Of a DNA stretch of 64,000 nt, positions 24,629 through 44,861 are shown piece by piece. Position 1 is the first letter of the stretch; each line of letters starts with the position of its first letter. The stretch covers positions 39,634 through 103,633 of the forward strand of contig JBEKOM010000011.1 of the NCBI GenBank assembly GCA_049521795.1. Reading direction: 5' to 3'. The position numbers and the translations under genes are program-made. This DNA is from Candidatus Bathyarchaeia archaeon (GTDB lineage Archaea; Thermoproteota; Bathyarchaeia; Bathyarchaeales; Bathycorpusculaceae). The notes under the pieces were generated by a model. The model saw only the letters and a list, made by a program, of their open reading frames with translations, searched no databases and was not told where the DNA came from.

Positions 24629-24633
24629 AACGT

Positions 24634-25812
24634 ATGAGCGCTTCACAAGAACTTGAGAAGGCTGCAACCAACTATGCGTTGGAAGCGGTACGCTTGGACA
24701 AACAAGGTTCTAAAGGCATGGCAATAACCATGTACCAGAAGGCTATCGAAAGCCTCTTGCAGCTTGTCCAGCTTTATCCTGAGTACAGCCTGAACAAAGT
24801 CTACGTGCAAAGAGCAATAGCGTATCAGGAGCGGATTAAGGCTATTCAAGGCGCTGTGATCACTTTTCGGGAGCAACCTCACGTTGAAGCGAGAAACGGT
24901 GAAGTTGACGGCGAACCTAAGAGCAGTGAGGGTGGAAAGTCCAGTTATGAGGAGCTGATAATAACAGAGAAGCCTAACGTCAAATGGGAAGAAGTTGTTG
25001 GGCTTGACCCGGCAAAGAAGGCAGTGAAGGAAGCGATAATCTACCCGGTTGAGAGGCCTGACCTGTTCCCGCTGGGTTGGCCACGGGGAATACTGCTCTT
25101 CGGACCACCTGGTTGCGGAAAGACACTGATTGCAGCGGCCGTCGCGACAGAAATAGACGCAACCTTTGTTTCAATAGACGCAGCTTCAATAATGTCGAAA
25201 TGGTTAGGTGAGGCTGAACAGAACGTTTCACGTCTCTTTGGTCAAGTGAGAAAATCAGCCGTGGAAGGTAAACCCGCTATAGTTTTCGTCGATGAATTGG
25301 ACTCGCTGATGGGAAAACATTCAAACGAGGTTGGAGGTGAGATTCGCGTTAGAAACCAGTTCTTGAAAGAGATGGACGGAATAGTGGACAAAGGCAAGAA
25401 CCTTCACGTGTACGTTATTGGAGCAACAAACAAACCTTGGGACTTGGACTGGGCCTTCATAAGGAGGTTCCAGAAAAGGATCTTGGTGCCTCTGCCAGAT
25501 CACCATACGAGGTTGATGATGTTCAATCTGTACACCACTAATCTGCAATTGGCGCCTGACGTTGACCTGCATGAGCTCGCAAGACTTTCAGAAGGGTTCT
25601 CGGGAAGCGACATAAGGGATGTTAACCAGTCGGCACAGCTGAAACTCATAGGTGAATTCTTCGAGTCAGGAAAAGCAAGCGATAAAATGGCGAAGCCGCG
25701 ACCCTTGACGATGGATGATTTCAGACAAATACTTGAAGACCGAAAACCCAGCGTATCCCTCGACATGGTCGCCTTGTACACGCGATGGTTTGAAGCCTTC
25801 AAGGCTCTCTAG
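24634..25812 (+). CDS. cdvC: CdvC/Vps4 AAA ATPase with MIT domain
   Basis: N-terminal MIT domain (A..YA..AV.LD..G), GPPGCGKT, FVDELD, ATNKPWDLD.AFIRRF. Confidence 0.93.
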   Translation: MSASQELEKAATNYALEAVRLDKQGSKGMAITMYQKAIESLLQLVQLYPEYSLNKVYVQRAIAYQERIKAIQGAVITFREQPHVEARNGEVDGEPKSSEGGKSSYEELIITEKPNVKWEEVVGLDPAKKAVKEAIIYPVERPDLFPLGWPRGILLFGPPGCGKTLIAAAVATEIDATFVSIDAASIMSKWLGEAEQNVSRLFGQVRKSAVEGKPAIVFVDELDSLMGKHSNEVGGEIRVRNQFLKEMDGIVDKGKNLHVYVIGATNKPWDLDWAFIRRFQKRILVPLPDHHTRLMMFNLYTTNLQLAPDVDLHELARLSEGFSGSDIRDVNQSAQLKLIGEFFESGKASDKMAKPRPLTMDDFRQILEDRKPSVSLDMVALYTRWFEAFKAL

Positions 25813-25830: not shown

Positions 25831-25956
25831 GAGTGTGTTGAACTGTCGGGTGGAAAGGTTTGGAGAATTACCTTTGAATTTTTAACCTATCTCCTTTCTC
25901 CCATCTCCCCCTCAGATAATATCTCCAAACCCCACAGCCCTGACACAACACAACTC
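25831..25956. repeat. Imperfect long inverted repeat between convergent cdvC and mobB
   Basis: GTGTTG/CAACAC, TGTCGGG/CCTGACA, GGTTTGGAGA/TCTCCAAACC arms around a pyrimidine-rich loop. Confidence 0.55.
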
Positions 25957-26491
25957 AAGTTGCAGCCTTTTTCTTAACAATCCTTTCAACCAGGTCTGCA
26001 AGTTTTTCAGGGTCTTTTCGTATGTCGACGTATGGAATTCCCTTCAAGCCTGACTTGGGCTGATAAGGTCCTGTGAAAGCCAGTATAGGCGGAAAAATCT
26101 TGAAGTCTTCCGCGATTTCTTCAGGGGATCTCACGAGGGCAATTTTGTAGATAGACTTGTCTTGGGCAACTAGTTTTCTAAGCCCCTCAAGAAAAATCAA
26201 ATCGCTTCCCCTGCATTTTCGCAGGATCGCTTTCAAGGAAAGGTTTCTCGTTTCCGTTTTCTCAATCGTTGCGATCTCGGCAGCTGATACGCCGACGATA
26301 ATCTTGGCTCCCGACTGCGCGAACTTCCAAGTGTCTTTTCCCTTTGTGTCAATCGTGAAATCTGGTTCGGGGATGTGCTTCACGGCTGCGACCTTGTATC
26401 CCCTTTGTGTAAGCTCTTTGATCAGGATCTCTATGGTTTCTGTCTTCCCTGACTTTTTTCCTCCGACAACGGCGATCGCAACGGGTGCCAT
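25955..26491 (-). CDS. mobB: Molybdopterin-guanine dinucleotide biosynthesis protein B
   Basis: VVGGKKSGKT, VAAVKH, DTKGKDTWKF..SGA, EGL. Confidence 0.9.
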   Translation of the reverse strand: MAPVAIAVVGGKKSGKTETIEILIKELTQRGYKVAAVKHIPEPDFTIDTKGKDTWKFAQSGAKIIVGVSAAEIATIEKTETRNLSLKAILRKCRGSDLIFLEGLRKLVAQDKSIYKIALVRSPEEIAEDFKIFPPILAFTGPYQPKSGLKGIPYVDIRKDPEKLADLVERIVKKKAAT

Positions 26492-26503
26492 GGTGATTTC
26501 CTG

Positions 26504-26971
26504 CTACTCCGTTTCTTCCATGAAGACTTTTCTTAAAGTGCCTTTGTCCATGTGCAGTTTCTCTGCAAGGTCTGTCACCCATCGAATATAAGCCCTGAAA
26601 AGGTCTTGCAATATCTCTGCTTTCTCCTTTTGAGAAAGGTCTCTTTGTTCAGCTAGCAGCAGCGCAAACCACCTTCCCGCATCCGAAAGCATATAGGCTT
26701 TAACCCACACGTTACGTCCCTCTTGCTCAACTTTCTCCATGTGTTCCTTCATTATTCGAAGTCTTGTCAGCGATTTCAAATTCCCGATGATTGTTTTGTT
26801 TGAGTAGGGCAGTTTTTTCATGAGGTCCTTCTGGTAGATCTTATTCGAAATGCCCTGTTTCAAAGAGAACCTCAAAACGTCGACAGCTGCTTTTGAGCCG
26901 AAAATCGCACTCAATATCTTTGTTTTTTGTTCGGACGGAAGGAACACTACATAGGGATGTAAATCTTCCAC
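26504..26971 (-). CDS. Winged-helix DNA-binding protein
   Basis: YQKDL...YSNKTIIGNLKSL...Y.LS..G wHTH pattern. Confidence 0.6.
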   Translation of the reverse strand: MEDLHPYVVFLPSEQKTKILSAIFGSKAAVDVLRFSLKQGISNKIYQKDLMKKLPYSNKTIIGNLKSLTRLRIMKEHMEKVEQEGRNVWVKAYMLSDAGRWFALLLAEQRDLSQKEKAEILQDLFRAYIRWVTDLAEKLHMDKGTLRKVFMEETE

Positions 26972-27082
26972 TACGACTCACTGCACTCAGCTCTGTGGCA
27001 TTCTTGTCTTAAACGTTACGGGTCTGTGCAATATGTTTTTTTAACACTGTGAACCAGTCTATCGCGGTGCGCTAAGACGAAC

Positions 27083-28102
27083 ATTGGCAGCTGGATTCCT
27101 GAGGACGGAGATACCTTCGTGACCAAAACAGGATTCATATTCAACGTTTTCGGATATGAGCATCCGGCTGGTCGAGTCTTTGCCTTCTTGAAGTACATTC
27201 CGGCCAAGTACAAGAAACTCTTCAACATCGCATATCTGGACAACACTTGGAACTACGGAAGGCAGAAAGTTTTCAGGGCAGAGAGGCTTTACACAGCCCA
27301 AAACTATCAGAGTTTCCTTGAGACTTTCAGAAAGAATTTGCCCAGCCACGTATATTTCTGCCCTTACAGAGGCAAAGAGGTTATCACAGCACCCCTGAAC
27401 TCTGTGAAAGACATCTATGTTCCAAAAGAGTGTCTGCGCCGCTTGGCAAAGCTTCAGACCAGGGACAGTTTGCAGAAAGTTGCTCTGGACCTTATCAAAC
27501 TGCTGTCAAGCGAATCACAAATAGACACTGAAGACTTTGGAATCCACGGTTCAATTGCCTTAAACATGCACACGCCAAAGTCGGACATAGACCTTGTAGT
27601 CTATGGAGCACAAAACTTTCGCAAACTCGAAGCAACAATAAACAGACTTGTCGAAGCAGGGACACTCAGCTACATGTCCAAGAATCGTATAGACGCAGCG
27701 AGACAATGCAAGGGAAAATACCAAGGCAAAATATTCATGTACAACGCAGTGCGAAAGCCCGAGGAAATCAATTCAAAATACGGAATAGCTGAATATTTTC
27801 CCATTGCCCCTGTCAGTTTCTGTTGTACGGTAAAGGACGACTCTGAAGCGATGTTTCGCCCAGCCATTTACGGAATTGAAAATTACGTTCCAGCGGACAG
27901 GGAGGCAACCTTCAGCGAGAACAAGGTGCCCAACCAGGTGGTCTCAATGATTGGGTGTTACCGAAACGTTGCCCGGCGAGGCGACAGGATCCGAGTTTCC
28001 GGAATGCTTGAGCGCGTTGAAAACCTCGAAACAGGACAGGTTTCTCATCAAGTAGTCGTCGGCACGGGCACAAGTGAGGAAGAGCACATTTGGCCGCTCT
28101 GA
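27083..28102 (+). CDS. Predicted nucleotidyltransferase (Pol-beta superfamily, COG1665-like), paralog 1; start uncertain (ATT 27083/27095 or GTG 27119)
   Basis: G.IF.V.G..HP...LKY; GIHGS...SDIDLVVYG; C-terminal OB-like R.SG.LE.V. Confidence 0.78.
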   Translation: MGSWIPEDGDTFVTKTGFIFNVFGYEHPAGRVFAFLKYIPAKYKKLFNIAYLDNTWNYGRQKVFRAERLYTAQNYQSFLETFRKNLPSHVYFCPYRGKEVITAPLNSVKDIYVPKECLRRLAKLQTRDSLQKVALDLIKLLSSESQIDTEDFGIHGSIALNMHTPKSDIDLVVYGAQNFRKLEATINRLVEAGTLSYMSKNRIDAARQCKGKYQGKIFMYNAVRKPEEINSKYGIAEYFPIAPVSFCCTVKDDSEAMFRPAIYGIENYVPADREATFSENKVPNQVVSMIGCYRNVARRGDRIRVSGMLERVENLETGQVSHQVVVGTGTSEEEHIWPL

Positions 28103-29160
28103 AACTCCGTGACCGTGACGCGATCATCACAGAAGAAGGGTTGATCTTTCGCGTCTTCGGCTACTCGCATCCTTCAAACTCTTATATTTGCGATGTCGAG
28201 TACGCGCCTTCCAGCATCCTCAAGTCCGACAATCCAAAAGCCTTCAGAAACGAGCGCCAAAACGTATTCTACAAGTTCTATGAGGATGAAGGCTGGAAGT
28301 TCGTTGAAAGCAAATACCCACGATACATGATTTTCCACGAGATGCTGCGAAAAAAAGTGGTCGGAGTCAACCACAATGACATACTTGAAGTCAGAAGACC
28401 GAAAGAAATTCTTCAAGAACGTATCGAAACACTACGAAAGGATGAACTTCTTACAGCATTGCAAAGAGTACTCGATACGGTGACAGAGTCTGCAGGTTTG
28501 CGCCTCGAAGACCTCGGGGTTTTCGGCTCTTTGCTGCATGGCTTTTATCATCCAAGGTTCTCTGATATTGACCTGGTCGTTTACGGTAGAAGGAACGTTG
28601 CCAAGCTTTGTGAAACGCTCAAAGAACTTTATGAAGGTGATTCCTCGACGCTTAAGAATGAGTTCGAAACCGGACATTCAATCGAAGGCAAGAATTGGTG
28701 GTTTCGGAACTTTAGTCTCGAAGAATACTTGTGGCACCAGAGAAGAAAGCTGATCTATGCCCTGTTTGACGACGCACGAAATGGCAGAAAAATAAAGACA
28801 GAGTTTGAGCCCGTGAAAGACTGGAAAGAGATCAGCAACGAATATAGCCCCAAAACAAGAATTCTGCGAAAAGGTTGGACTAAGATTCTGGCCACGGTGA
28901 CCGATGCTAGTCAGGCGTCATTCATTCCTTCGATCTATGGCATTGAACCACAACAGGTTCTTGAAGGACCAAGGGAAGCCGCTGAAGCGAGAAGAATTGT
29001 CTCCTACATGGAGGAATTTCGAATGCAAGCATGGGACGGAGAAACTGTGTGTGTCGAAGGAAACCTTGAGGAAGTGACAGCTCCGAAACGCAGTTTCTAT
29101 CAGATAGCGTTAACCTACTGCGAAAGATACTATGAGCAGGTTCTGAAAGTGAAGAATTGA
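28090..29160 (+). CDS. Predicted nucleotidyltransferase (COG1665-like), paralog 2
   Basis: RDRDAIIT.EGLIFRVFGYSHP; GVFGSLLHG.....SDIDLVVYG; EGNLEEV. Confidence 0.8.
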   Translation: MAALKLRDRDAIITEEGLIFRVFGYSHPSNSYICDVEYAPSSILKSDNPKAFRNERQNVFYKFYEDEGWKFVESKYPRYMIFHEMLRKKVVGVNHNDILEVRRPKEILQERIETLRKDELLTALQRVLDTVTESAGLRLEDLGVFGSLLHGFYHPRFSDIDLVVYGRRNVAKLCETLKELYEGDSSTLKNEFETGHSIEGKNWWFRNFSLEEYLWHQRRKLIYALFDDARNGRKIKTEFEPVKDWKEISNEYSPKTRILRKGWTKILATVTDASQASFIPSIYGIEPQQVLEGPREAAEARRIVSYMEEFRMQAWDGETVCVEGNLEEVTAPKRSFYQIALTYCERYYEQVLKVKN

Positions 29161-29164
29161 ATTA

Positions 29165-30178
29165 CTACGCCAGCACCATATAGTCCGACGGCTTGTTCCC
29201 AATCAACAGTCTAAAGTACTCTAGATTTCGTTTTGAATCTGTGACGCTCTCGACTTTTCCCTGTGCGATGATAGTCTCTCCGTTTCTGGCCTGTTCACAA
29301 AACCTGCCACGGAAAGAGGAAATCTCCGTTATTGAAGGGAGCCGTGGCCCGTCTATGATCGCCGTTTTTTCAAGCATGTACTTGCATGGGGTGAAAATCG
29401 ATTCAGAATCGTCTGCGATTGTTGCTTTGATTCTTGCATAACCAATATTCTTGTATTCAACATCGCCATACTTTTCGCCACCTTCATCCCAATTCTTCAC
29501 GAAGCGGACAAAGTAGTCGGTCTCCTCAAACTTGCCTTGCATGACTTTTCTCGATTCAATTCGAACAAAGCTCTCAAAATCGGTCGCAGTGTCCTTCGAA
29601 CGAAAGTCGAACAGAGTTCGCAGTTCATCTCGCGTGTAGGAGCGCATTTGTTCATGTCTGCTGCCAAGCATCGTTTCAAGTGTAGAGTACACTTTTCTAC
29701 AATTCTGTGAACCATAGACAATGGGGTCAATGTCTGAATTTGCCGTGTGAAGCCCGACCAAGATGGAGCCTGAGACCCCGATTGACTCCCAAGAAACATT
29801 GGCTTCTTCTTTCAGCACCTCTGCCAACTGTCGGGCTTTTCCCTCAAGCAGGTCCAATTCTGCTGAACCTCGCAATTCCTGAAGCTTTTCAGCGGGTCTA
29901 TAAATATTCTTCACGTCACCGGTTGGAACTTCACATAATGTCTCATCGAAAACTGGGTCAAAAACGAGGTATTGCGGAAATCTCTCACTGAGCAAAGCAT
30001 ATCTTTCGGAAAGAGAATAGACCTTGCCGTAGATGGTTCCTTTCCTTCTCCTTTCTCCTTCCTTGCTAGGGAAATATCGAATGAAAGCGATAATCCGATT
30101 TGGTGGATGAACTGAGCCTTTGACATCGAAGATCAGCCCTGCAGCGGTTTCTATTAGGTCTCCCTCGCAGGTTTTCAT
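29165..30178 (-). CDS. Predicted nucleotidyltransferase (COG1665-like), paralog 3
   Basis: EGDLIET..GLIFDVKG..HP; GVSGSILVGLH...SDIDPIVYG; QGKVESV. Confidence 0.8.
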   Translation of the reverse strand: MKTCEGDLIETAAGLIFDVKGSVHPPNRIIAFIRYFPSKEGERRRKGTIYGKVYSLSERYALLSERFPQYLVFDPVFDETLCEVPTGDVKNIYRPAEKLQELRGSAELDLLEGKARQLAEVLKEEANVSWESIGVSGSILVGLHTANSDIDPIVYGSQNCRKVYSTLETMLGSRHEQMRSYTRDELRTLFDFRSKDTATDFESFVRIESRKVMQGKFEETDYFVRFVKNWDEGGEKYGDVEYKNIGYARIKATIADDSESIFTPCKYMLEKTAIIDGPRLPSITEISSFRGRFCEQARNGETIIAQGKVESVTDSKRNLEYFRLLIGNKPSDYMVLA

Positions 30179-30186
30179 TCATCCAT

Positions 30187-30948
30187 TCACACCTGTGGTT
30201 GCAGTATTGACTTCTCTTTTATAGTCCATCCTGTATTCTTAAGCGCTAGCATCAACGGCACGGCTATGAGGGTTGCGAGTATTGCCTGCACGAACCGTAT
30301 TGCGGGATATATGAAAGGGCTAACGACGAAGGCAACACGAACGCCCTCTAAGGGCATGCCAAAAATACCCCCATAGACTGTGGGAACTGCGAAGATGTCT
30401 GCTCCCCACATGTTGTCCGCCTGATTTCCGATAAATGAAATCAAGAAGAAGAGTATCGCAGCATTTTTTGGATTTGAGAGTCTTGTGCCGAGAGCTACAA
30501 TGGGAATGATGAGCAGAACAGCAATAACTTTGTCCCAAAGTACGGCGGCAGAGACGTAGTAATATGTTGCGATTGGTTGGGAGGGTGGAAGAAACAGAAA
30601 GGCTACGATTAATAGACCAAGTGAAGCAAAAGCCCACTTGGACTTCCTGTAGAAGATGAATCCGACAATCAGGGCGTTTAAGGGAGGTGAAAGCAAGAAA
30701 GGCGCGCCAGTCGGAGTCAAACTCGCTGGGGGCAATACCCAAGTTACAAGTCCTCCCATTAAAGCGGTGAAAGCGCCTAGGTAGGGGCCTAGAATGAATC
30801 CGAAAACAGAAGCCATCATAGCTTCGAGCTGAATGTTGAGGCCTGGCACGCCAATAGAAGGGATTTTTGGAGATATCAAGGACAAAACATAATAAAGTGC
30901 CGCGAAAACTGCCGCCAACGCCATATTTCGAGTGGACAGCTTCAACAA
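30187..30948 (-). CDS. ECF transporter S component
   Basis: STRNMALAAVFAALY, GFILGPYLG, about 7 TM helices. Confidence 0.75.
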   Translation of the reverse strand: MLKLSTRNMALAAVFAALYYVLSLISPKIPSIGVPGLNIQLEAMMASVFGFILGPYLGAFTALMGGLVTWVLPPASLTPTGAPFLLSPPLNALIVGFIFYRKSKWAFASLGLLIVAFLFLPPSQPIATYYYVSAAVLWDKVIAVLLIIPIVALGTRLSNPKNAAILFFLISFIGNQADNMWGADIFAVPTVYGGIFGMPLEGVRVAFVVSPFIYPAIRFVQAILATLIAVPLMLALKNTGWTIKEKSILQPQV

Positions 30949-31047
30949 TGCATACGTCCAGTGTAGATTTGTAGCTGGCGATGTATTTTTTTACACAAGC
31001 TTAATAAGACTTTCTTATGGACTTACGCGTGGTGTTAAGCCTTCCGC

Positions 31048-31986
31048 ATGTTTGAGGCCGCAAACAACGTCTCCAAGTGCTTAGAGCTAGCGATTCTTCT
31101 GGAAGCTAGCGCACACAAACCGGGAAATGTGAGCGTAGTTACCAACTTTGAGAGCACACGTTATGAGCATTTTCTTGCTTCTGCAGTTGCTGCGAGGTCT
31201 TCTTTTGAGTACGCAACTGAACGGGGAATCGCAGTTCATAATGGCAAAAGCCCCGTAGCGAACGTTAATGTTGGACAGATCATAAAGAACTGCGTCACAG
31301 AAATTGACCATTGGCAGCACGGGGGTAACACGTTGCTGGGTACCGTGATTCTGCTTTCTCCGATGGCCGTCGCTGCTGGCATGACTATGTCGAGAGAGCG
31401 TTTTGACGTGTCCGCTTTGAGGAAGAACTTGAAGCTGGTTGTGGAGTCAACCACGGCCAAGGACGCCGTTGACGTTTATGAGGCTATAAGGATCGCTAAT
31501 CCCAGCGGACTTGGGAAGGCTCCTGAATTAGACGTCAACGACCCCACTGCGACTGAAAGAATAATAGGTCAGAAAATATCCCTGTACGAGGTTTTCAAGA
31601 TAGCTGAGAAATACGACACGATCTGTTCCGAGTGGACGAAGAATTATCCAGTAACTTTTGATCTTGCTTATCCCTCCTTGGCAGATCGGTTGCGAAACAG
31701 CTCAGATCCAAGTTTGGCCATCGTTCAAACCTTCTTGCAGGTGCTTGCTGAAGTTCCAGACACTTTTATAGCCAGGAAGACGAGCATAGAGAAAGCGCGT
31801 CAGATTTCACTGAAAGCCAGAGAGGTCATAGAGCTCGGTGGAGTTGAAACATCCAGCGGAAGAAAGAGCCTAGACAAGCTGGACGGGGAACTCAAGAAAT
31901 CCAGCAATCTTTTGAATCCAGGCACCACTGCTGACATCATAGGAGCTGCACTGGCCCTATGCATTCTTGCCGGTTACAGGCCCTAA
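31048..31986 (+). CDS. Archaeal CitG-like triphosphoribosyl-dephospho-CoA synthase family protein
   Basis: LEASAHKPGNV, NTLLG..LL.P, PDTFIARK, NPGTTAD. Confidence 0.85.
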   Translation: MFEAANNVSKCLELAILLEASAHKPGNVSVVTNFESTRYEHFLASAVAARSSFEYATERGIAVHNGKSPVANVNVGQIIKNCVTEIDHWQHGGNTLLGTVILLSPMAVAAGMTMSRERFDVSALRKNLKLVVESTTAKDAVDVYEAIRIANPSGLGKAPELDVNDPTATERIIGQKISLYEVFKIAEKYDTICSEWTKNYPVTFDLAYPSLADRLRNSSDPSLAIVQTFLQVLAEVPDTFIARKTSIEKARQISLKAREVIELGGVETSSGRKSLDKLDGELKKSSNLLNPGTTADIIGAALALCILAGYRP

Positions 31987-32180
31987 ACACTTTCACTGTG
32001 CACCCATCATTTGACGAGAAGAACCATTGAACCCAATAGGAGCTACGTTGCCGCTGCGACCTAGAGCCATTATTGATGTTCAGATGGGAAATCAGTTAGG
32101 CTAAATAACCCGTTGATGCACTGAGACTACTTCTAAGAGCCGAAAAGATGTCGACGCAGAAGATCGAGTAGGAACGTGAA

Positions 32181-32588
32181 ATGAGGAACGAAGTAAGACT
32201 CTCCGTTACGTTGCTGACAGGGCGAACGATTGAACAGGGCGTTGGCAAGGAGCGTGGAAAAGCTTCAAAAGAGTACGCTGAAAGTGTTACTGTCTGTTTC
32301 ATTGACCCGCAGGACATGAAGAAACTCAAGGTCAAAGAAGGAGCCAACGTGGAAGTGTCAACGAGCCACGGTTCTATCGTTTTGAAATCCGTTAAATCCA
32401 GAAGAGGCCCTCATCCTGGCATAGTTTTTGTTCCCTACGGCCCGTGGGCAAACGTCATCGTTGATTCAGGGACAGACAGCATCGGAATGCCCTCGTTGAA
32501 AGGAATCCCAGCCGAAATAGAATCTGCGCCGGAAAAATCAGTACTAGATTTACCCAGACTTCTTGCACAGCTCTTCGGGAATGAGTGA
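32181..32588 (+). CDS. fwdD: Formylmethanofuran dehydrogenase subunit D
   Basis: LLTGRTIEQG, VFVPYGPWAN, TDSIGMPSLKG. Confidence 0.92.
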   Translation: MRNEVRLSVTLLTGRTIEQGVGKERGKASKEYAESVTVCFIDPQDMKKLKVKEGANVEVSTSHGSIVLKSVKSRRGPHPGIVFVPYGPWANVIVDSGTDSIGMPSLKGIPAEIESAPEKSVLDLPRLLAQLFGNE

Positions 32589-32589
32589 C

Positions 32590-34044
32590 ATGCCAGTCGT
32601 CAAAGCGGTGACCTGTCCGATCTGCGGATGTCTCTGCGACGACATAGAGTTAACGGTCAAAGATGATGCGATAGTCAAGGTGAAAAACGGCTGCTCCATG
32701 TGCGAGTCGAAATTCTCCAGTTACACGGGGCACAGACAGTTGAAACCTCTGATCAAGAGGAACGGGCAGCTGGTTCAAGTTTCTTACAAGGAAGCTGTAT
32801 CTGCTGCAGCTGAAATATTGGCCGAAGCAAGTTACCCGCTGCTTTACGGTTGGAGCTCCACTAGCTGCGAGGCCATACGCGTGGGTCTTGAGTTGGCCGA
32901 AGAAGTAGGCGGGATAATCGACAACACTTCAACAATCTGCCACGGCCCGTCTGCCTTAAGCATTCAGGATGTTGGATTGCCATCGTGCACGCTTGGACAG
33001 ATAAGACACAGAGCGGACCTGGTGATCTATTGGGGAAGCAACCCTTGGAGTGCTCACCCGAGACACATCGAAAGGTACACATCGTTCTCGGAGGGAAGGT
33101 TTGAGAAGAGCGAGTGGGAAGCGTACCTGAAGAAAACGAAGGCTGCGACAGCCAAGAAGAAGGTTGAAAGCGCTCTCAGAAGAGTCAAAGCAGAAGAAAC
33201 AAGACCTTTCCCGTCATCTCCCGTGGGAGCACCATGCCCGGCTATCTTGAAAGGAGGCAGAAAACTCTTAGTCGTGGACGTCAGAAGGACCAGGACAGCT
33301 GAGAACGCTGACTACTTTATCCAAGTTGAACCGAACAAGGACTACGAGCTTTTCGAAGCTCTGAGAGCCCTGATTCGAGACGAAGAGCTTGAGGTTGACG
33401 AAGTTGCAGGAGTGCCTGTGGAATACTTGGAAGAAGTGGCAGATTTGATGATCGGATGCAACTTCGGTGTGATTTTCTTCGGACTAGGCCTCACTATGAG
33501 CAAGGGAAAACTGCGAAACGTGGACGCAGCTCTCTCTTTGACCAGAGACTTGAACATGCGCACCAAATTTATGATACTGCCGATGCGAGGGCACTTCAAC
33601 GTTACAGGTGCGGACACGGTTTTCACTTGGCAGACCGGTTACCCGTACGCTGTTGATTTTTCCTTGGGCTACCCGAGATACAACCCGGGAGAAACGTCAG
33701 CAGTAGACGCACTGTTGCGAAAAGAAACAGACGCAGCACTGGTGGTGGCTTCAGACCCCGTTTCAAACTTTCCCAGAGCTGCTGCGGAACATTTGGTTAA
33801 GAATCCTTTGATCGTCATAGACCCGCACATGAATGTGACAGCTCAGATGGGCGATGTGGTTTTTCCCTCAGCTTTTGTTGGAATAGAGACAAGTGGAACC
33901 GCGTACCGCATGGATCACGTGCCCCTTTCACTTAAAAAAATCGTTGACCCGCCAAGAGGAGTCCTTTCCGATGAAGTGATTTTAAACAGGGTCCTGTACG
34001 AGGTTAGACGGATAAGAAAGAAGAAGCGAAGGGAGGCAAAGTAG
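32590..34044 (+). CDS. fwdB: Formylmethanofuran dehydrogenase subunit B (Cys-type Mo/W ligand)
   Basis: CPICGCLCDD..C, CHGP, HPRH, MRGHFNV, GTAYRMD. Confidence 0.93.
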   Translation: MPVVKAVTCPICGCLCDDIELTVKDDAIVKVKNGCSMCESKFSSYTGHRQLKPLIKRNGQLVQVSYKEAVSAAAEILAEASYPLLYGWSSTSCEAIRVGLELAEEVGGIIDNTSTICHGPSALSIQDVGLPSCTLGQIRHRADLVIYWGSNPWSAHPRHIERYTSFSEGRFEKSEWEAYLKKTKAATAKKKVESALRRVKAEETRPFPSSPVGAPCPAILKGGRKLLVVDVRRTRTAENADYFIQVEPNKDYELFEALRALIRDEELEVDEVAGVPVEYLEEVADLMIGCNFGVIFFGLGLTMSKGKLRNVDAALSLTRDLNMRTKFMILPMRGHFNVTGADTVFTWQTGYPYAVDFSLGYPRYNPGETSAVDALLRKETDAALVVASDPVSNFPRAAAEHLVKNPLIVIDPHMNVTAQMGDVVFPSAFVGIETSGTAYRMDHVPLSLKKIVDPPRGVLSDEVILNRVLYEVRRIRKKKRREAK

Positions 34045-35736
34045 ATGGAGCTTCTGGTGAAAAACGGCTTTGTCTACGACCCGATTAACGGCATAAACGG
34101 CGAAAAGATGGACATTGCAGTAAGAAATGGTAAGATAGTTGAAAACGTGAACGAACGCAAAGCTAGGAAGATAGACGCTTCTGGAATGATGGTCATGCCC
34201 GGAGGCGTTGATATACACTGCCACATTGCCGGGTCAGAGGTCAACACTGGAAGGCTCTTGAGGCCAGAAGACCACTTCAAAGATTTTGAAGTGAAGACAT
34301 CAATAACAAGGTCCGGAGTCGGACGCTCGATTCCGTCCACTTTCACGACTGGCTACCGGTACTCCAGGATGGGTTACACGACGATAATGAACCCTTCCAT
34401 GCCTCCGCTCGAAGCGAAGCACACGCATGAAGAGTTAAACGACACCCCTATGGTTGACAAGGCTTCTTATCCGCTTCTCGGCGACTGGTGGTTCGTGCTC
34501 GAGTACCTCGCGCAAGGAAACATCGAAGAGTGCGCAAGGCACGTAGCGTGGCTGATGGACGCGACCAAGGGGTACGCGATAAAAATAGTTAACCCAGGCG
34601 GGCTAGAAGCATGGGGATTCGGCCACAACATCAAAAGCCTCGACGACCAGGTTCCGCATTTCTGCACAACCCCACGCGAGATAATCAGGGGCCTGTGCAA
34701 AGTGAACAAGCTTCTTGCATTGCCCCACACGATTCACGTTCACACGAACAACCTTGGAAAACCTGCAAACTATCTCACGGCGTTAGAAACGATGAAGTGT
34801 GTTGAAGACTTGGCCGTTGAAAACAAGCCTGTGATCCACATAACGCACTGCCAGTTCAGCGCCTTCAAGGGCGACGACTGGGCAACACTCGAATCCGGTG
34901 CGGAGGACATCGCAAAATACGTTAACGGCCACCATCACGTCACGATGGACATGGGCCAAGTCATATTCACAGACACGACGACCATGACGGCTGACGGTCC
35001 GTTCCAGTATGACCTCTACGGGCTTACAGGCAACAAATGGGTAAACCATGATGTTGAAACGGAAACAAGCGCGGGCATCGTTCCCTTCCGTTACCGCCGC
35101 AAGAGCTACGTTCACGCAACGCAATGGTCAATAGGCTTAGAGCTGGCCTTACTGATCAAGGATCCTTGGAAAATATTCATGACCACGGACCATCCGAACG
35201 GCGGACCATTCACAGCGTATCCCAGAATCATCGCTTGGCTCATGAGTTCAAAGGCAAGAAATGCAACGATGAAAAGGATCAACAGGCGGGCGAGGAGCAG
35301 AAGCCTCCTTCCCTCAATAGACCGTGAGCTAGACTTCTACGAGATCGCGGTCATGACGAGGGCCGGACAAGCTAGGGCGTTGGGTCTCAAGAATAAGGGA
35401 CATTTGGGCGTGGGAGCAGACGCTGACATAGCGATATATGCTGTGAACCCTGAAATAGCCGATCCTTCAGGAAAGTACAAGACCGTGAGAAAAGCGTTCA
35501 GGAGAGCAGCATACACGATCAAAGATGGAAAAATAGTTGTTAAAAATGGAGAGATCGTGAGACACGCTGATGGTGCTACGATGTGGCTTGATGTTCACGT
35601 GTCTGAACCCGTCAGGTTGACCGATGACATGAAGAAGAGGTTCAGGGAATACTGGACGGTTGAGTATGAGAATTATCCTGTCGGTAAAGAGTGCCTTAAG
35701 GTTTCAAACCCGATCGCTGTGAAGGCATGTGTTTAG
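34045..35736 (+). CDS. fwdA: Formylmethanofuran dehydrogenase subunit A (amidohydrolase)
   Basis: DIHCHIAG, RPEDH, KIVNPGG, HTIHVH, TTDHPNGG, GADAD. Confidence 0.95.
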   Translation: MELLVKNGFVYDPINGINGEKMDIAVRNGKIVENVNERKARKIDASGMMVMPGGVDIHCHIAGSEVNTGRLLRPEDHFKDFEVKTSITRSGVGRSIPSTFTTGYRYSRMGYTTIMNPSMPPLEAKHTHEELNDTPMVDKASYPLLGDWWFVLEYLAQGNIEECARHVAWLMDATKGYAIKIVNPGGLEAWGFGHNIKSLDDQVPHFCTTPREIIRGLCKVNKLLALPHTIHVHTNNLGKPANYLTALETMKCVEDLAVENKPVIHITHCQFSAFKGDDWATLESGAEDIAKYVNGHHHVTMDMGQVIFTDTTTMTADGPFQYDLYGLTGNKWVNHDVETETSAGIVPFRYRRKSYVHATQWSIGLELALLIKDPWKIFMTTDHPNGGPFTAYPRIIAWLMSSKARNATMKRINRRARSRSLLPSIDRELDFYEIAVMTRAGQARALGLKNKGHLGVGADADIAIYAVNPEIADPSGKYKTVRKAFRRAAYTIKDGKIVVKNGEIVRHADGATMWLDVHVSEPVRLTDDMKKRFREYWTVEYENYPVGKECLKVSNPIAVKACV

Positions 35737-36561
35737 ATGATAGGGCTTCGACTAGCGAGAGAATTCAGGTTTCCAATAGTTGCCGAGTGTATAAACCCGG
35801 ATGTGCTTGAAGGCAAGAGCGCTGGCGAAATTGGAGAGTTGAAGGTTTGGGAAGGGAACAGACAGAAGAAGCTGTGTGAACTTTTCCGGATTGACGAAGT
35901 CAGGGACGAAGGTGCGCCGGAAAGCGTTGCCATAGCGATCCATGGGGACGTTGGCAAAGTTCGAAGAATTGGGTCATGCATGAAAAGCGGAGAAATCGTG
36001 ATTAACGGGGATGTTGGCATGCACTTGGGTGAAGAAATGAAGGGAGGAAAAATAACTGTTCACGGAAACGTCGGCGCTTGGCTTGGCTCAATGATGACTG
36101 GCGGCGCAATCGAGGTTCATGGAAACGCGAGCGACTATGTCGGCGCACCGTACCGTGGAAGCACCAAGGGCATGCAAGGCGGGAAGATGACCGTTTATGG
36201 AAACGTGGGAAACGAAGTTGGAGCGTGGATGAAGAAAGGCACGATCAAAGTGTACGGAGGCGCAGGTCAATTCGTCGGCTTTCGCATGCGTGACGGTACG
36301 ATTTACGTTCAAAACGGTTGCGAAGCAAGAGCTGGCGCATGCATGACGGATGGGAAGATCGTTGCCGGCGGCTGCCTAAACTCGGTTTTGCCCAGCTTCA
36401 CGATAGACAGCGTTAAACCAAGAGTCAAGATTGAGGAAAACGAAACGGTTGAAGGGCCCTTCTATCTTTTCTTGGGAGACCTCGCCGAAGGTGGAAAAGG
36501 CAAACTCTACGTCTCTAAAGTCAAGAACCCACATCTAGCCTGCTATGAGAAGTTACTCTGA
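35737..36561 (+). CDS. fwdC: Formylmethanofuran dehydrogenase subunit C
   Basis: Repeated G..M.GG.I.V.GN beta-helix units; YRG...GM.GG; GDL...GKG. Confidence 0.93.
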   Translation: MIGLRLAREFRFPIVAECINPDVLEGKSAGEIGELKVWEGNRQKKLCELFRIDEVRDEGAPESVAIAIHGDVGKVRRIGSCMKSGEIVINGDVGMHLGEEMKGGKITVHGNVGAWLGSMMTGGAIEVHGNASDYVGAPYRGSTKGMQGGKMTVYGNVGNEVGAWMKKGTIKVYGGAGQFVGFRMRDGTIYVQNGCEARAGACMTDGKIVAGGCLNSVLPSFTIDSVKPRVKIEENETVEGPFYLFLGDLAEGGKGKLYVSKVKNPHLACYEKLL

Positions 36562-37558
36562 GGAGAAATATCCTTTGAAAAACGCTCTAAGTGTAAACCG
36601 GTTGGCTTGGAAGCTTCTGGAAGAACTGGTCAAAAGCCCAGACTTCTACGGCGTCAAAGTGGAAAAGACGAGCAACGGGACAACGATCGTAGATGCTGGC
36701 GTGCAGGCAAGAGGCGGCTTTGAAGCTGGCAGACTCATCACGGAGATCTGCATGGGCGGCCTTGGAAAAGCCCAAGTGTGCTCCAGAAAATACGGGGACT
36801 TGGAACTTCAGTCAATATTCGTTTACACTGACCACCCGGCAATAGCGACTCTAGGCTCGCAGTACGCTGGTTGGCAGATAAGCGAGGAGGGATACTTCGC
36901 GATAGGCTCTGGACCAGCAAGAGCATTAGCTTTGAAACCGAAAGAAGTTTACGAGGAAATCCAATACAAAGACGAGTGCGATAAGGCCGTTGTCATCTTG
37001 GAAACTCAGACATTTCCACCGCCGAAATTGATAGAACGCTTTGCAAGAGACTGCAGAGCATCACCCGAGAATCTGGCGGTAATTCTTACCCCAACAACCA
37101 GCTTGGCCGGAGCAACTCAAGTTTCAGGAAGAATCGTTGAAACGGGAGTACACAAACTGAGAAGGCTAGGGCTGGACCCCAAGACAATTCTCTACGCTTG
37201 GGGATGTGCCCCCATTCCGCCAGTGCATCCCAAGTTCGCGGACGCGATGGCACGAACGAATGATGCAATTCTTTACGGCGGCACATCCTGCTATGTTCTT
37301 GAGTGTGATGATGAAGAAAAGCTCAGCGAGATAATAGAGAAGGCTCCGTCGAGGGCGTCCAAGGCTTACGGCAAGCTTTTCAAAGAAATATTCAAGGAAG
37401 CTAATCATGATTTCTACAAGATAGATCCAGACCTGTTTGCCCCAGCGGTAATCATCATCAACAACGCAAGGACTGGCCGCACGTTTCAGAATGGCAAGAT
37501 AAACGCCGCCGCATTAGCAGAGTCATTTGATCTTGAGAAAGACGGGCAAGACAGATGA
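36545..37558 (+). CDS. mch: Methenyltetrahydromethanopterin cyclohydrolase
   Basis: LSVN, ICMGGL, SQYAGW, GSGPARAL, RIVETG.HK, TNDA.LYGG, DFYKID..LFAPA (TTG at 36575 is an alternative start). Confidence 0.95.
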   Translation: MRSYSEEKYPLKNALSVNRLAWKLLEELVKSPDFYGVKVEKTSNGTTIVDAGVQARGGFEAGRLITEICMGGLGKAQVCSRKYGDLELQSIFVYTDHPAIATLGSQYAGWQISEEGYFAIGSGPARALALKPKEVYEEIQYKDECDKAVVILETQTFPPPKLIERFARDCRASPENLAVILTPTTSLAGATQVSGRIVETGVHKLRRLGLDPKTILYAWGCAPIPPVHPKFADAMARTNDAILYGGTSCYVLECDDEEKLSEIIEKAPSRASKAYGKLFKEIFKEANHDFYKIDPDLFAPAVIIINNARTGRTFQNGKINAAALAESFDLEKDGQDR

Positions 37559-37567
37559 TTTTTGCTG

Positions 37568-38167
37568 CTAATTCCTAGTTGATTTGTTCGCTTTTTGAGT
37601 ATTAAGGAACCTGTTGACGAATTCTCTGAAGCCCGTGTTTCCGGCAAGTGCACCCATTAGAATGCTCATTACGGTTATTTCCACCCATGCTTTCGCAGTG
37701 ACGACTGGAGCAAGGGCCGCCATACCTGGGCCAATGACCGCAGTCATGATATATAGAAAGTACAGAACAGTGTAGATTGATTCTGGAACATACGACAGAA
37801 GTGTTGCTGGCACAGCCAGATATGAATGCTGCGAACCGCTTCCTATCTTCAGTTTCTTGTAAAGTATGCCCGCCATGAGTCCCGTCATTGCCTTTCCCAG
37901 TGGGACCCCCACTACAGCAATCAGTCCCTGGCCATAAAAAAACCCAAAATAATAGCCGGAATAGAGGCCGCCCAGAAGCCCAACAATCGCTCCTACGATC
38001 GGACCCCCGAAGATCGCTGCTATGAACGTGGCAATGTGGGAAAGGTCTAGGGCGGCGCCGCCTTGTCCCACGGTGCTAAGAATGGGCGCAACGTTAAGCG
38101 AAATCGCAGAAAGGGCTATTCCTAGGGCACTCAGCATTCCGATGAATGCAACCGTCTTTGAATCCAT
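37568..38167 (-). CDS. ECF transporter S component
   Basis: SKTVAFIGMLSAL, DLSHI, GGPIVG, about 6 TM helices. Confidence 0.72.
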   Translation of the reverse strand: MDSKTVAFIGMLSALGIALSAISLNVAPILSTVGQGGAALDLSHIATFIAAIFGGPIVGAIVGLLGGLYSGYYFGFFYGQGLIAVVGVPLGKAMTGLMAGILYKKLKIGSGSQHSYLAVPATLLSYVPESIYTVLYFLYIMTAVIGPGMAALAPVVTAKAWVEITVMSILMGALAGNTGFREFVNRFLNTQKANKSTRN

Positions 38168-38370
38168 GGCCTTTCCATCCCGAAACGACGCGTCATGATA
38201 GTTTGAGATAACTACTTAAGAGTAACTACCCATAAAAGAGTACAAGACCAGTGAAGGTTCTGGTAACTTAGCGTCAGACGGCTTCTAGCTGTTAACTCTC
38301 GTCAGATGACTCTGAGCGCACGCTAACTTATGCAAATGCAGAAGTTCGAAAAAAGAGAAAGTGTGGGTTT

Positions 38371-38556
38371 CTAGGTTGCGAGGTCTTCTATTTCTGCTTT
38401 GGAAGCATTTTCCTTGACTGATGCTATTCCTTTTTGGCATCCCTCTTTTGATCCGTAACCTTGGCTTTCCGCTATAATCTCCCCATTTTGAGCTCTAAGT
38501 CTGAACCTGAATTTTCCTACCGCATCTTTGAATATTTCAAAACGTTCTCCTGCCAA
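38371..38556 (-). CDS. YegP/DUF1508 family protein
   Basis: FEIFKDAVGKFRFRLRAQNGEIIAESQGY.SK..C.KGI.SVK.NA; TTG after GAGGTG. Confidence 0.85.
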   Translation of the reverse strand: MAGERFEIFKDAVGKFRFRLRAQNGEIIAESQGYGSKEGCQKGIASVKENASKAEIEDLAT

Positions 38557-41539: not shown

Positions 41540-42469
41540 TTGCAGACAGGCCTTGCGCGGACTGTGAAGGAAGCGATGGAAATCCCGATTGATGGTTTCA
41601 CTAAACTGGTCGCGGAGGCAAGGCGGTTTCTTGAAAAGGAAAGCGGCAGAGTTGGCAACCTTCAAATCCTCGGAAGGCTCGTCAAGATGAAGCCCTTAGG
41701 CGAGGCAGTCGTGGTCGGTGATTTGCACGGCGACCTTGAGAGTCTGATTCAGATACTGCAGCAAAGTGAGATTCTGCAAAGAATGGAAAAGTCTCAACTT
41801 GTCTTCCTGGTCTTTCTTGGAGATTACGGTGATCGCGGTGAGTTCTCTGCAGAAGTCTACTACACGGTTCTAAGCCTGAAACTTCAACATCCAGCACAAG
41901 TGGTTTTGATGCGGGGAAACCACGAGGGACCAAAAGACCTTCTAGCATCTCCTCATGACCTGCCCCTGCAGTTTCAAAACAGGTTCGGAAAAGAATGGAC
42001 CGAAGCCTACAAGAGCATTCTCGAACTGTTTCCGCTTCTCTGCAATTCAGTGTTGGTAGAAGAGCGTTACCTGATTGTTCACGCGGGCTTACCTCAGCAG
42101 GCGCGGACGATTGAGGATTTCGCGTATGCCCACACGAAGCATCCGAAGGTGACGTTCCTTGAGGACATGCTTTGGAGCGACCCGGAGGAGTCTCTTGAAG
42201 GAACATATCCTTCTACAAGAGGTGCGGGCCATCTGTTCGGTAAAGACGTAACAACCGCCGTTCTGAAAGCGCTGAAAGTGAAAATACTGATACGTGGACA
42301 CGAACCATGTAGTGAAGGCTTCAAAATCGACCACGATGGCAAGATCTTGACGCTCTTTTCAAGAAAAGGTCCTCCCTACTGCAACACGTACGGTGCTTAC
42401 TTGGACGTGAACCTGTTCAAAAAGTTCCAAAAGGCAACGCAACTGATTCCGTACATTCACAAATTCTGA
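41540..42469 (+). CDS. PPP-family serine/threonine protein phosphatase
   Basis: GDLHG, GDYGDRG, RGNHE, HAG, LWSDP, RGAG..FG, IRGHE, TLFS. Confidence 0.9.
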   Translation: MQTGLARTVKEAMEIPIDGFTKLVAEARRFLEKESGRVGNLQILGRLVKMKPLGEAVVVGDLHGDLESLIQILQQSEILQRMEKSQLVFLVFLGDYGDRGEFSAEVYYTVLSLKLQHPAQVVLMRGNHEGPKDLLASPHDLPLQFQNRFGKEWTEAYKSILELFPLLCNSVLVEERYLIVHAGLPQQARTIEDFAYAHTKHPKVTFLEDMLWSDPEESLEGTYPSTRGAGHLFGKDVTTAVLKALKVKILIRGHEPCSEGFKIDHDGKILTLFSRKGPPYCNTYGAYLDVNLFKKFQKATQLIPYIHKF

Positions 42470-42546
42470 GCGCAACATGGCACAGAAACTTTAAGAAACA
42501 CAGCCTACAGCATTTTTCACAGGTTGAACACTGGAGAGTTCCTTTT

Positions 42547-43425
42547 TTGAGATTTGGAATCATAACGCGGAACAGAAACTCTTACAGTTCACTCCAAGTG
42601 CGGGAAGCCCTTGAAAGACGTGCAATTCCGTACGTGTGCTTCAGGTTTCCAAGGCTGATTGCGAGTGTAGGACATGCTTCGCTGACAAGGGTCGATAACG
42701 TTGACGTGCAGAAAGAGTTGGACGGACTAATAGTTCGCCCAATCGGGCGAGGCTCACTTGAAGAGCTGGTTTTCAGGATGGATGTCCTCTACAGACTTCA
42801 GCGTGCAGGCCTGTACATCATAAACCCGCCGGAGGCGATTGAACACTGTGCTGACAAGTACGACATCCTTGCTATCTTGGAAGAAAACGGCGTACCCGTA
42901 CCGCGCACAGCTGTGACCGAAAGCATCAGCGAGGCTCTGAGAGCTTTCAAGGAGTTAGGAGGCGACGTTATCGTGAAACCGATATTCGGCTCCAGAGGCA
43001 TAGGAGCCACAAGGGTAAACGATTCGGAAGTGGCTGCAACAGTTTTCAGGGCTGTAACATTCTATCATGGCGTCATTTATCTGCAGGAGTTTGTTGACCA
43101 CGGTTTTTCTGATATTCGCGCTTTCGTGGTTGGCAACCGGGTGGTCGCAGCGATGAAGCGTGTTGCACGCAGCTGGAAGACAAACTACAGTCAAGGTGCT
43201 AGGCCTTTGAAAATAGAGCTTGAAAAAGTCCATGAAGAAATCGCCGTCAAATCGGCCAAATCCATCGCTTGTAAGATAGCCGGAGTGGACATTCTTGAGA
43301 GCCCTTCTGGGCCTGTTGTGGTCGAAGTGAACAGTCAGCCAGGATGGCGTGGACTGCAGTCAGTTGCGACCGTTAACATTGCGGATGAAATTGTGGACTT
43401 TGTGCTTTCAGAGTTGAAGAAGTGA
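42547..43425 (+). CDS. RimK-family ATP-grasp alpha-L-glutamate ligase (MptN-like)
   Basis: DKY, PVPRT, KPIFGSRGIG, QEFV, DIRAFVVG, WKTN..QG, AGVDI, EVNSQPGW. Confidence 0.85.
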   Translation: MRFGIITRNRNSYSSLQVREALERRAIPYVCFRFPRLIASVGHASLTRVDNVDVQKELDGLIVRPIGRGSLEELVFRMDVLYRLQRAGLYIINPPEAIEHCADKYDILAILEENGVPVPRTAVTESISEALRAFKELGGDVIVKPIFGSRGIGATRVNDSEVAATVFRAVTFYHGVIYLQEFVDHGFSDIRAFVVGNRVVAAMKRVARSWKTNYSQGARPLKIELEKVHEEIAVKSAKSIACKIAGVDILESPSGPVVVEVNSQPGWRGLQSVATVNIADEIVDFVLSELKK

Positions 43426-44210
43426 GAAGCGTGCGAGAAGTTGAAATTCTGAGAATCGACGTTTCTAGCAGACAAGCAAATCAGATGAAAGACTGCGTAG
43501 CGCAGGAAAAGCCAATGCACCTTTTCTTAAACCGAACATTGTACGCCACCATTTTCTGCACTCCTTCAAAACTGAAGGAATTGGCGGTTGGGCATTTGGT
43601 CTCTGAGGGAATCTTAAAATCGATTGAGGAGATTGAAGAAGTCAACCTGAAAAAGGATGTTTGCAGGGTTAAGCTGAAACCCAGCGTTGACTTGAACAAA
43701 AGGCTAAGCTTGTCGAAGCATTTTCAGCGAGTTATTCTTTCAGCCTGCGGAAGCACGGGAACGTATACTCCTTCGCAAAGGTTGCCCAGAATCAAGTCAA
43801 ACTTGACGATCAAAGCAGAGACGGTGCTTGATTGCGTCAACTCTCTGAATCGCGCCGCAGAAATCTTTAGAAAAACCGGCGGGGTACACGCTGCTGCGAT
43901 TTTCAGCAGCGATGGAATTCTTATGGCTTCAGCTGAGGACGTTGGTCGCCACAACGCGGTCGACAAAGTTATAGGCATCACGATGATGCGCAAGACTAAT
44001 CTTGGAAAATGTTTTCTCACCTTGACTGGAAGAATGACAGGCGACATAGTGATGAAAGCGGCAAGATTAGGAATGCCCGTCGTAGCTTCCATGGCAGCGG
44101 CCATAGATTCTGGAATTGCTATTGCGAAGAAAGCCGATTTGACTCTGGTTGGGTTCGTCAGAGGGAAGCGCATGAATGTTTACAGCGTTCCTGAACGAAT
44201 TTTGTTATGA
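43422..44210 (+). CDS. fdhD: Formate dehydrogenase accessory sulfurtransferase FdhD
   Basis: TP..L.ELAVG.L.SEG, SACG, F..TGGVHAA, EDVGRHNAVDK.IG, GFVRG. Confidence 0.92.
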   Translation: MRSVREVEILRIDVSSRQANQMKDCVAQEKPMHLFLNRTLYATIFCTPSKLKELAVGHLVSEGILKSIEEIEEVNLKKDVCRVKLKPSVDLNKRLSLSKHFQRVILSACGSTGTYTPSQRLPRIKSNLTIKAETVLDCVNSLNRAAEIFRKTGGVHAAAIFSSDGILMASAEDVGRHNAVDKVIGITMMRKTNLGKCFLTLTGRMTGDIVMKAARLGMPVVASMAAAIDSGIAIAKKADLTLVGFVRGKRMNVYSVPERILL

Positions 44211-44856: not shown

Positions 44857-44861
44857 ATTGG

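Follow-up and report, generated by a model that had tools for sequence, protein, structure and literature searches.

Genes of the locus and the nucleotidyltransferase family

We analysed a 64,000-nucleotide stretch of a Bathyarchaeia genome (the window, meaning the whole stretch at its full length), in which three paralogous nucleotidyltransferase genes stand beside a gene for a CitG-like enzyme and the one-carbon (C1) genes fwdDBAC and mch. We call the three paralogues NT-A, NT-B and NT-C, and use NT for them and for their family. The window was annotated from a list of open reading frames (ORFs) with Pfam and NCBIfam scans, and ORFs and family matches agreed with every one of the 13 genes that a preliminary description of this DNA had named at 25955..38167, including two energy-coupling factor (ECF) S components (Table 1).

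Table 1. Features of the window, with positions counted from its first nucleotide
Feature	Positions	Strand	Match or remark
CdvA, ESCRT-III (Snf7) and Vps4 cell-division cluster	22974-25812	+	Snf7 match below cut-off; directly upstream of MobB
MobB, molybdopterin-guanine dinucleotide synthesis adaptor	25955..26491	-	TIGR00176 101.7 bits (cut-off 76.2); PF03205 E 3.4e-24
Small 155-residue protein, probable winged-helix (HTH_27/MarR-like)	26504..26971	-	weak matches: SelB_WH E 0.0039, Sta1 E 0.0054
NT-A, three-domain Pol-beta-type nucleotidyltransferase	27119..28102	+	PF01909 E 1.7e-5, 25.5 bits
NT-B, paralogue	28090..29160	+	PF01909 E 1.3e-5, 26.0 bits; start overlaps NT-A end by 13 bases
NT-C, paralogue	29165..30178	-	PF01909 17.9 bits; most widespread type, usually directly adjoining the CitG-like gene
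First ECF S component	30187..30948	-	PF07155 34.1 bits (cut-off 26.7); 8 bases upstream of NT-C, same strand
CitG-like enzyme	31048..31986	+	PF01874 E 7e-69, full length
fwdD, fwdB, fwdA, fwdC (formylmethanofuran dehydrogenase)	32181..36561	+	TIGR03129 556, TIGR03121 811, TIGR03122 249 bits, all above cut-offs; FwdD NF042908 111 bits, below cut-off 175
mch, methenyl-tetrahydromethanopterin (H4MPT) cyclohydrolase	36545..37558	+	TIGR03120 398.9 bits (cut-off 228.8)
Second ECF-S-like membrane protein	37568..38167	-	PF12822 35.8 bits (cut-off 30.7); convergent on mch
2-kb stretch with the window's lowest G+C	38168-40254		G+C 0.427; no ORF >91 residues
Short frame	39903-40088	-	
ORF of 422 residues	40255-41523	+	no Pfam match at E<=0.001
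Metallophosphoesterase, RimK-type ATP-grasp ligase, FdhD	41540..44210	+	PF00149 E 6e-24, PF08443 E 2.6e-32, PF02634 E 3e-71
Third ECF-S-like gene, then methyltransferase, AIR-synthase-like (ThiL-type) gene, ThiE	44221-47124	-	all on the same strand
Thiamine pyrophosphate (TPP) riboswitch	47113-47226	-	Rfam RF00059 66.6 bits (cut-off 54.3); directly ahead of the third ECF-S-like gene
Second CdvA-like gene	57068-57676	-	30 kb from the cell-division cluster
tRNA, 96 bases	57944-58039	+	Rfam 59.4 bits; missed by ARAGORN
ORF of 1099 residues	58295-61594	+	no Pfam match at E<=0.001

Full-length alignments placed the three NTs at 27-28% identity to one another (BLASTP E 2e-26 to 6e-37), far beyond chance, and each carries GS...SDID...VYG, which bears out the earlier account of them as paralogues with intact motifs. 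A whole-genome profile search found exactly these three copies in the host, whose assembly has 2.44 Mb, 98.75% completeness and 4.37% contamination. NT-A and NT-B lie above the PF01909 gathering cut-off of 21 bits; NT-C falls below it, yet is a full-length paralogue of both. The hG[GS] motif and next-strand DxD that mark the Pol-beta-like superfamily are present in all three. Across 139 family sequences the catalytic G, S, D and D are invariant, as are one Gly and one Glu of a C-terminal OB domain. GS and DxD are likewise invariant among 17 A-type sequences, and 14 B-type sequences have an invariant GS with DxD in at least 90%. Because each type keeps the catalytic motif, none looks like a dead copy. 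A Pfam scan of the NTs showed no PAP-associated or HEPN partner domain.

Among 1.84 billion cluster representatives, a profile built from the three paralogues retrieved 1408 at E<=0.001 and 397 at E<=1e-30, and NT-C was the closest type for 113 of 150 family representatives. A search for related loci with a narrower alignment gave 467 loci; of the best 80, 76 were titled Bathyarchaeota, Bathyarchaeia or Bathyarchaeales and four had titles naming bacteria (Acidiferrales, Acidoferrum and Limnocylindrales). A quick maximum-likelihood tree (SH-aLRT support only) of 86 family ORFs, drawn from the window and from 34 loci, resolved clades C (support 93), B (100), A (100) and a fourth, 'D' (94), which is sister to A (84). 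Clade D takes in fourth paralogues from other Bathyarchaeia, second copies of two-copy genomes and the lone copies found in two mch-less families; in the window's family, A occupies the position held elsewhere by D. Outside these clades are four divergent second copies that come from the families f23, f28 and f37 (our handles for families, genomes and loci begin with f, G and L).

Co-occurrence and gene order across the phylum

Seven queries were run against 201 genomes from the phylum, none less than 85% complete: the NT profile, mch, CitG, MptG, MfnB and each of the two S components. MptG is RFAP synthase, the first committed step of methanopterin synthesis, and a strong match to it means E<1e-15. 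The NT family is held by 97 genomes, CitG by 91, MptG by 87 (75 of them strong matches), mch by 48 and MfnB by 35. NT and CitG occur together in 88 genomes, with nine holding NT only, three CitG only and 101 neither, and NT is present in 71 of the 75 genomes with a strong MptG match. For mch the picture differs: 45 genomes hold both, three hold mch without NT, and 52 of the 97 NT-holding genomes lack mch. The linkage of the NTs to fwd and mch, which the preliminary description had drawn from their proximity here, therefore does not extend to the family, whose constant partners are the CitG-like gene and MptG. The genomes counted do not stand for independent events, and the roughly one hundred without everything may represent a few deep clades.

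Several families carry this distinction. The mch-less and MfnB-less families f23, f30 and f37 hold NT, CitG and MptG in all nine, all seven and all eight of their genomes, respectively; in f28, also without mch and MfnB, the same nine of ten genomes hold each of the three. In f17, where just one of eight genomes has mch and MfnB, NT and CitG are found in 8/8 and MptG in 7/8. Altogether the CitG and NT pair occurs in at least 40 genomes without mch or MfnB. Because of these mch-less, MfnB-less holder families, we tie the NT family to the CitG-like gene and the methanopterin arylamine branch, not to fwd/mch or methanofuran. A methanofuran role for NT and CitG was ruled out, as MfnB is absent from f23 (0/9), f28 (0/10), f30 (0/7), f37 (0/8) and f25 (0/6), 0/40 in total, families in which CitG is held and NT mostly held. 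Of the C1-cofactor link first proposed, the methanopterin half thus stands, on co-occurrence with CitG and MptG, gene order and an HPPK fusion, and the methanofuran half falls; phylogenetic profiling over the 201 genomes linked the family to MptG and CitG rather than to mch or MfnB.

Gene order is more independent support than these phyletic counts. Of 20 relatives' loci around the NT trio, 16 include CitG and 11 include fwdA. Matches to the NTs occur in 37 of 41 related genomes, mostly as three or four adjacent genes. The trio is thus conserved side by side in relatives, but the wider core is the pair of NT and CitG. In at least ten further genomes of other families the two are direct same-strand neighbours; in G191, G226, G063, G071, G056, G110, G125, G154, G130 and G138 CitG and a C-type NT share a strand and stand 40-60 bases apart. 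Two complete mch-less genomes have the order DUF1464-NT-CitG. The richest cluster (L124, in G122) runs NT, NT, CitG, DUF447, MptE-like, flavoprotein with Fer4, DUF1464, PTPS, MptG and Pterin_bind with DUF4346. Elsewhere an NT stands beside hydantoinase-like, amino-acid-kinase-like and MfnB genes (G208), an HMPTM-type radical SAM gene lies 4 kb from an NT (G191), and ftr is bracketed by three NTs next to mtd-fwdDBAC-mch (G106). One family representative of 505 residues (P0188) fuses HPPK (PF01288, E 3e-40, residues 8-134) to a full NT (residues 173-498).

DUF1464 (PF07318) is the same-strand neighbour of NT-CitG in the two mch-less genomes (L113 and L114) and also lies inside the methanopterin cluster of G122, which makes it a further candidate gene of the methanopterin pathway.

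The CitG-like partner and a proposed tail chemistry

The CitG-like protein aligns over residues 10-304 to positions 2-283 of the 284 in the PF01874 profile. Against the CitG and MdcB equivalog models it scores at most 47.4 bits, where the cut-offs are 272-477; the best hit, to a model with a cut-off of 280, matches only the C-terminal third. By these profile scores it is a distinct subfamily and no CitG/MdcB equivalog. CitX (PF03802) has no match anywhere in the host genome at E<=0.01. The partnership with a CitG/MdcB-family gene that marks CitX/MdcG-type enzymes is nonetheless found for the NTs in 88 of the 97 genomes that hold them.

CitG puts an ATP-derived 5-triphospho-alpha-ribosyl group on dephospho-CoA, and CitX and MdcG, which have the nucleotidyltransferase fold, form a phosphodiester with release of pyrophosphate. 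Methanopterin ends in a ribitol-alpha-ribose-5-phosphate esterified to 2-hydroxyglutarate. PMC8141765 describes the hydroxyglutarate and phosphate of methanopterin and, for methylotrophs, a dephospho-H4MPT without either. In methylotrophic bacteria a CitG-annotated gene (orf7) stands next to mch, according to the gene lists in PMC3615186 and PMC11533326. A division of labour in which CitG handles the ribosyl group and NT the phosphodiester fits these facts, since methylotrophs keep a CitG-like gene yet make dephospho-H4MPT.

By analogy with citrate lyase, the pterin-arylamine core would receive, at its ribitol end, a 5-triphospho-alpha-ribosyl group that the CitG-like enzyme makes from ATP. 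An NT acting in the role of CitX/MdcG would then esterify the alpha-phosphate with 2-hydroxyglutarate at its hydroxyl (or with another alcohol), releasing pyrophosphate and leaving the ribose-phosphodiester tail. The extra NT paralogues might perform further or alternative tail steps, or serve as partner subunits. A complex prediction for NT-A with NT-B, run twice without controls on alignments of only 17 and 14 rows, scored 0.00, a value that weighs neither for nor against such a partnership.

Probable salvage, alternatives and known systems

The preliminary description had placed the module in an organism that salvages its cofactors, and the host genome agrees with this. No match at E<=0.001 was found there to MptG, Pterin_bind, GCHY-1/MptA or MfnB, while control archaea matched as expected. 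We also searched the host by tblastn with proteins of G122, G208, G191 and G106, which are of the same order or the same phylum. These queries found no MptE-like, DUF447, DUF1464, PTPS, MptG, MptH-like, hydantoinase-like, amino-acid-kinase-like, MfnB or mtd gene in the host; the same set did find the three NTs, CitG, two ftr genes, a MobA-like gene and an HMPTM-type radical SAM gene (50% identity). The early genes of the MptG, MptA, MptE and MfnB types, and those of the DHPS-type/MptH-like and PTPS families, were therefore missing as the salvage view expects, and the host keeps fwd, ftr, mch, CitG, the NTs, the S components and a shared EcfAA'T module.

Relatives show the same losses. MptG above cut-off and MfnB are both absent from G018 and from four congeners, one of which consists of a single 2.3-Mb contig. 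Among these kin GCHY-1/MptA occurs in G001 only, in two pieces, one with an in-frame TAG (G001:C1:901905-902644, minus strand), and looks like a decaying gene of a lost pterin branch. Five of the ten genomes of the host's family keep both MptG and MfnB, one has MfnB only and four, the host included, have neither (95-100% complete). All four of the latter retain mch, CitG and three NTs.

Three further observations concern host C1 genes outside the window. The HMPTM-type radical SAM gene, of the pterin methylase type, lies directly downstream of a major facilitator superfamily transporter on the same strand (L127, G000:C3:82000-96000, genes 6213-7742(-) and 7837-9204(-)). The first ftr (L128) comes after a DUF2284 gene. 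The second ftr stands amid purine-synthesis genes (amidotransferase, GARS) and a PfkB kinase (L130, G000:C1:171000-184000, 5917-6831(+)).

The S components offer a possible route of import. Both S genes match S-component families above cut-off (PF07155 and PF12822). The folate family (FolT) model TIGR04518 scores 41.4 and 21.1 bits for the two, below its cut-off of 60, and by this match the first appears weakly folate-family-like. S components that take up fragments of methanopterin or methanofuran are not known to us. Contig 1 of the host carries an EcfA-EcfA'-EcfT module, two ABC ATPase genes followed by CbiQ/EcfT, with no adjoining S gene, and this shared module together with the S component adjacent to NT-C is a candidate importer of the precursor. 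The slot between CitG and NT-C holds an orthologue of the first S gene or a divergent S-like gene in 10 of the 20 relatives' loci, and a fragment in one more. In two loci from congeners (L031 and L032) and one from the same family (L017), the S-like gene of the slot is full-length and only 27-28% identical to that of the window; such divergence suggests importer turnover. A close orthologue of the first S gene (at least 44% identity) occurs in ten genomes, nine of which lack a strong MptG match.

The second S-like gene, which had been counted as part of the C1 module, is also next to mch in G178, G012 and G213. Its family is broad and occurs in 8 of 12 genomes of f20, a family without mch, MptG and NT. 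A C1-specific importer role for it is unsupported and was rejected.

On this evidence we lean, somewhat beyond an even chance, to the view that the NTs and the CitG-like enzyme are late methanopterin side-chain enzymes with the chemistry proposed above by analogy, which in this genus would finish a precursor imported through the S component. Because early pathway genes are missing in the genus, finishing or rebuilding an imported precursor is the most likely task of the module, and the NTs, the CitG-like enzyme and the importer probably share it. Salvage in this genus is plausible, with genome-wide support. The NTs themselves had first been taken for a salvage-specific module; they are better regarded as candidates for general tail steps than as a salvage device, because they also occur in genomes with full de novo clusters such as L124. 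A fuller scheme is more tentative and in our judgement rather doubtful: the genus may be a double auxotroph for both C1 carriers, importing tail-less fragments via solitary ECF S components and rebuilding the ribosyl-phosphate-hydroxyglutarate tail with the CitG-like enzyme and three specialised NTs.

Several points weigh against the tail-enzyme view. CitG is missing from nine NT-holders and a strong MptG match from 26, and since kin genomes are not independent, a few deep losses may account for much of the NT co-occurrence. The range of the NT family was surveyed in this phylum, and cultured methanogens lie outside it; in the control searches Sulfolobus acidocaldarius, Methanosarcina acetivorans and Methanocaldococcus jannaschii had both CitG and MptG. 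The NT pairs of f23, f28 and f37 adjoin PmbA/TldD and a 500-550-residue protein of no known function, not pterin genes. The chemistry is carried over by analogy from CitG/CitX, and one tail needs one phosphodiester, which leaves three or four active NT paralogues without explanation. No Pfam or NCBIfam family beyond the generic PF01909-type nucleotidyltransferases matches the three NTs. Weaker paralogues of the S component adjoin MptG in the MptG-holders G098, G184, G201, G040, G106 and G075; the importer is therefore not tied to MptG loss, and the membrane protein is a general neighbour of the pathway. The missing early genes, finally, could mask non-orthologous enzymes.

This last point underlies the strongest alternative, which keeps the methanopterin-tail role but has both cofactors made de novo by non-orthologous early enzymes, with the S components importing unrelated vitamins. 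Such an account would explain why 25 of the 26 NT-holders without a strong MptG match hold mch, a wide pattern that could mean a replaced enzyme rather than many auxotrophs; it would also suit the breadth of the second S component's family and the retained HMPTM-type radical SAM gene, an early pterin step in known pathways. It has to accommodate, however, six or more unrelated early families absent together, early genes of methanopterin and methanofuran lost jointly in four of the ten family genomes when five keep both, and the broken MptA of a congener. We consider it unlikely.

Structural models bear on a second alternative, in which the NTs are RNA- or DNA-directed enzymes (for 3'-end tailing, or tRNA or single-stranded DNA modification) and the linkage to CitG and C1 genes is incidental or regulatory. 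An AlphaFold2 model of NT-C from a 139-row alignment (pLDDT 97.5) has three domains. The predicted core, residues 107-232, resembles Pol X (Z 7.6, root-mean-square deviation 3.0, 88 aligned), CutA (Z 7.3) and Pol beta (Z 6.8), all middling values, and the modelled C-terminal OB fold resembles the OB domains of SSB, RPA, MCM-N and editosome proteins at Z 7-8.6. The N-terminal beta-rich domain, modelled alone (pLDDT 95.7), gave a best VIA-align Z of 4.7, to Sm/KOW/SH3-like barrels, and no clear relative. Foldseek returned weak rows to poly(A) polymerases and OAS1, and no match at E<=0.001 for the whole NT-C model or its N-terminal domain; PDB sequence searches with 3- and 139-sequence NT profiles gave nothing below E 0.02. 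An OB fold joined to a PAP/CutA-like core is likewise expected of a nucleic-acid enzyme, which also counts against our reading; the structural matches are nevertheless all at the level of common folds. A housekeeping RNA enzyme would hardly be expected to be fused to HPPK, to sit in a methanopterin cluster, to pair with CitG on one strand across many lineages or to be missing from about half of the phylum, and we regard this alternative as improbable. Isoelectric points, considered as a hint of nucleic-acid binding, were mixed (5.6, 6.5 and 9.2; family median 8.5) and uninformative.

A third possibility is that the CitG-like enzyme and an NT equip a protein, perhaps a C1-enzyme subunit, with a prosthetic group of the phosphoribosyl type. 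CitG/CitX, acting on the citrate lyase carrier protein, are an exact precedent, and in the window's family fwdDBAC directly follows the CitG-like gene. But the host lacks CitX, the pair persists in the many genomes without mch or MfnB, and the HPPK and MptG links point to a small-molecule pterin substrate, so that we think this very improbable.

The remaining features of the window surround the module. For MobB, found near the NT trio in 9 of the 20 relatives' loci, the Mo/W-pterin enzyme FwdB is the likely client. The 155-residue protein is a neighbour of NT-A conserved in 12 of these loci; weak family matches and language-model neighbours (HTH_27 in 19-29% of the members among its atlas neighbours) make it a probable winged-helix protein, and a PDB sequence search gave no match. 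Vps4, from the cell-division cluster, is a conserved neighbour of the NT locus among relatives. RimK-type ATP-grasp ligases are of a glutamate-ligase type that occurs in C1-cofactor clusters. The genes and riboswitch at 44221-47226 (minus strand) are a riboswitch-led thiamine operon in an archaeon. The 96-base tRNA probably contains an intron. The short frame in the G+C-poor stretch may be the tail of a transposase or integrase, which it resembles.

Several steps of methanopterin synthesis were still without an assigned enzyme in a gene inventory of 2011, which speaks of an "estimated 7 unknown proteins" (PMC3087415), and the module of NT and CitG-like genes provides concrete, clonable candidates for the tail steps. 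Within the literature searched, with most subscription journals outside its reach, no paper dealt with the function of the NT family or tied it to methanopterin, and none described salvage of methanopterin or methanofuran by Bathyarchaeia. Judging by the genes that this genus has lost, some archaea with fwd, ftr and mch may rely on neighbours for C1-carrier precursors, a dependence that bears on the resistance of Bathyarchaeia to cultivation and on the reading of their metabolic models. If true, double auxotrophy with tail rebuilding would give methanopterin and methanofuran their first described route of salvage or remodelling, and would imply a trade in their fragments in anoxic communities.

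The arrangement can be set beside three known systems. As in ECF vitamin salvage, solitary S genes stand beside cargo-processing enzymes with one EcfAA'T module elsewhere in the genome; unlike in the known cases, the folate-family model is matched below its cut-off only. As with CitG and CitX of citrate lyase and MdcB and MdcG of malonate decarboxylase, a PF01874 enzyme is paired with Pol-beta-fold transferases, often in one operon, and the same two-step logic would give the alpha-ribosyl-phosphodiester of methanopterin. Unlike in those systems, the host CitG-like protein lies below the equivalog cut-offs, no carrier protein is in view and a small molecule is the presumed acceptor, and the NTs match no named family and carry an extra N-terminal barrel and C-terminal OB fold. 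With generic PF01909 enzymes (kanamycin nucleotidyltransferase, MNT antitoxins, and poly(A)/CutA-type enzymes) the NTs share the hG[GS]...DxD motif and the core fold; they differ from them as a mainly archaeal family of proteins of about 340 residues, with three fixed domains and two to five old paralogues per genome.

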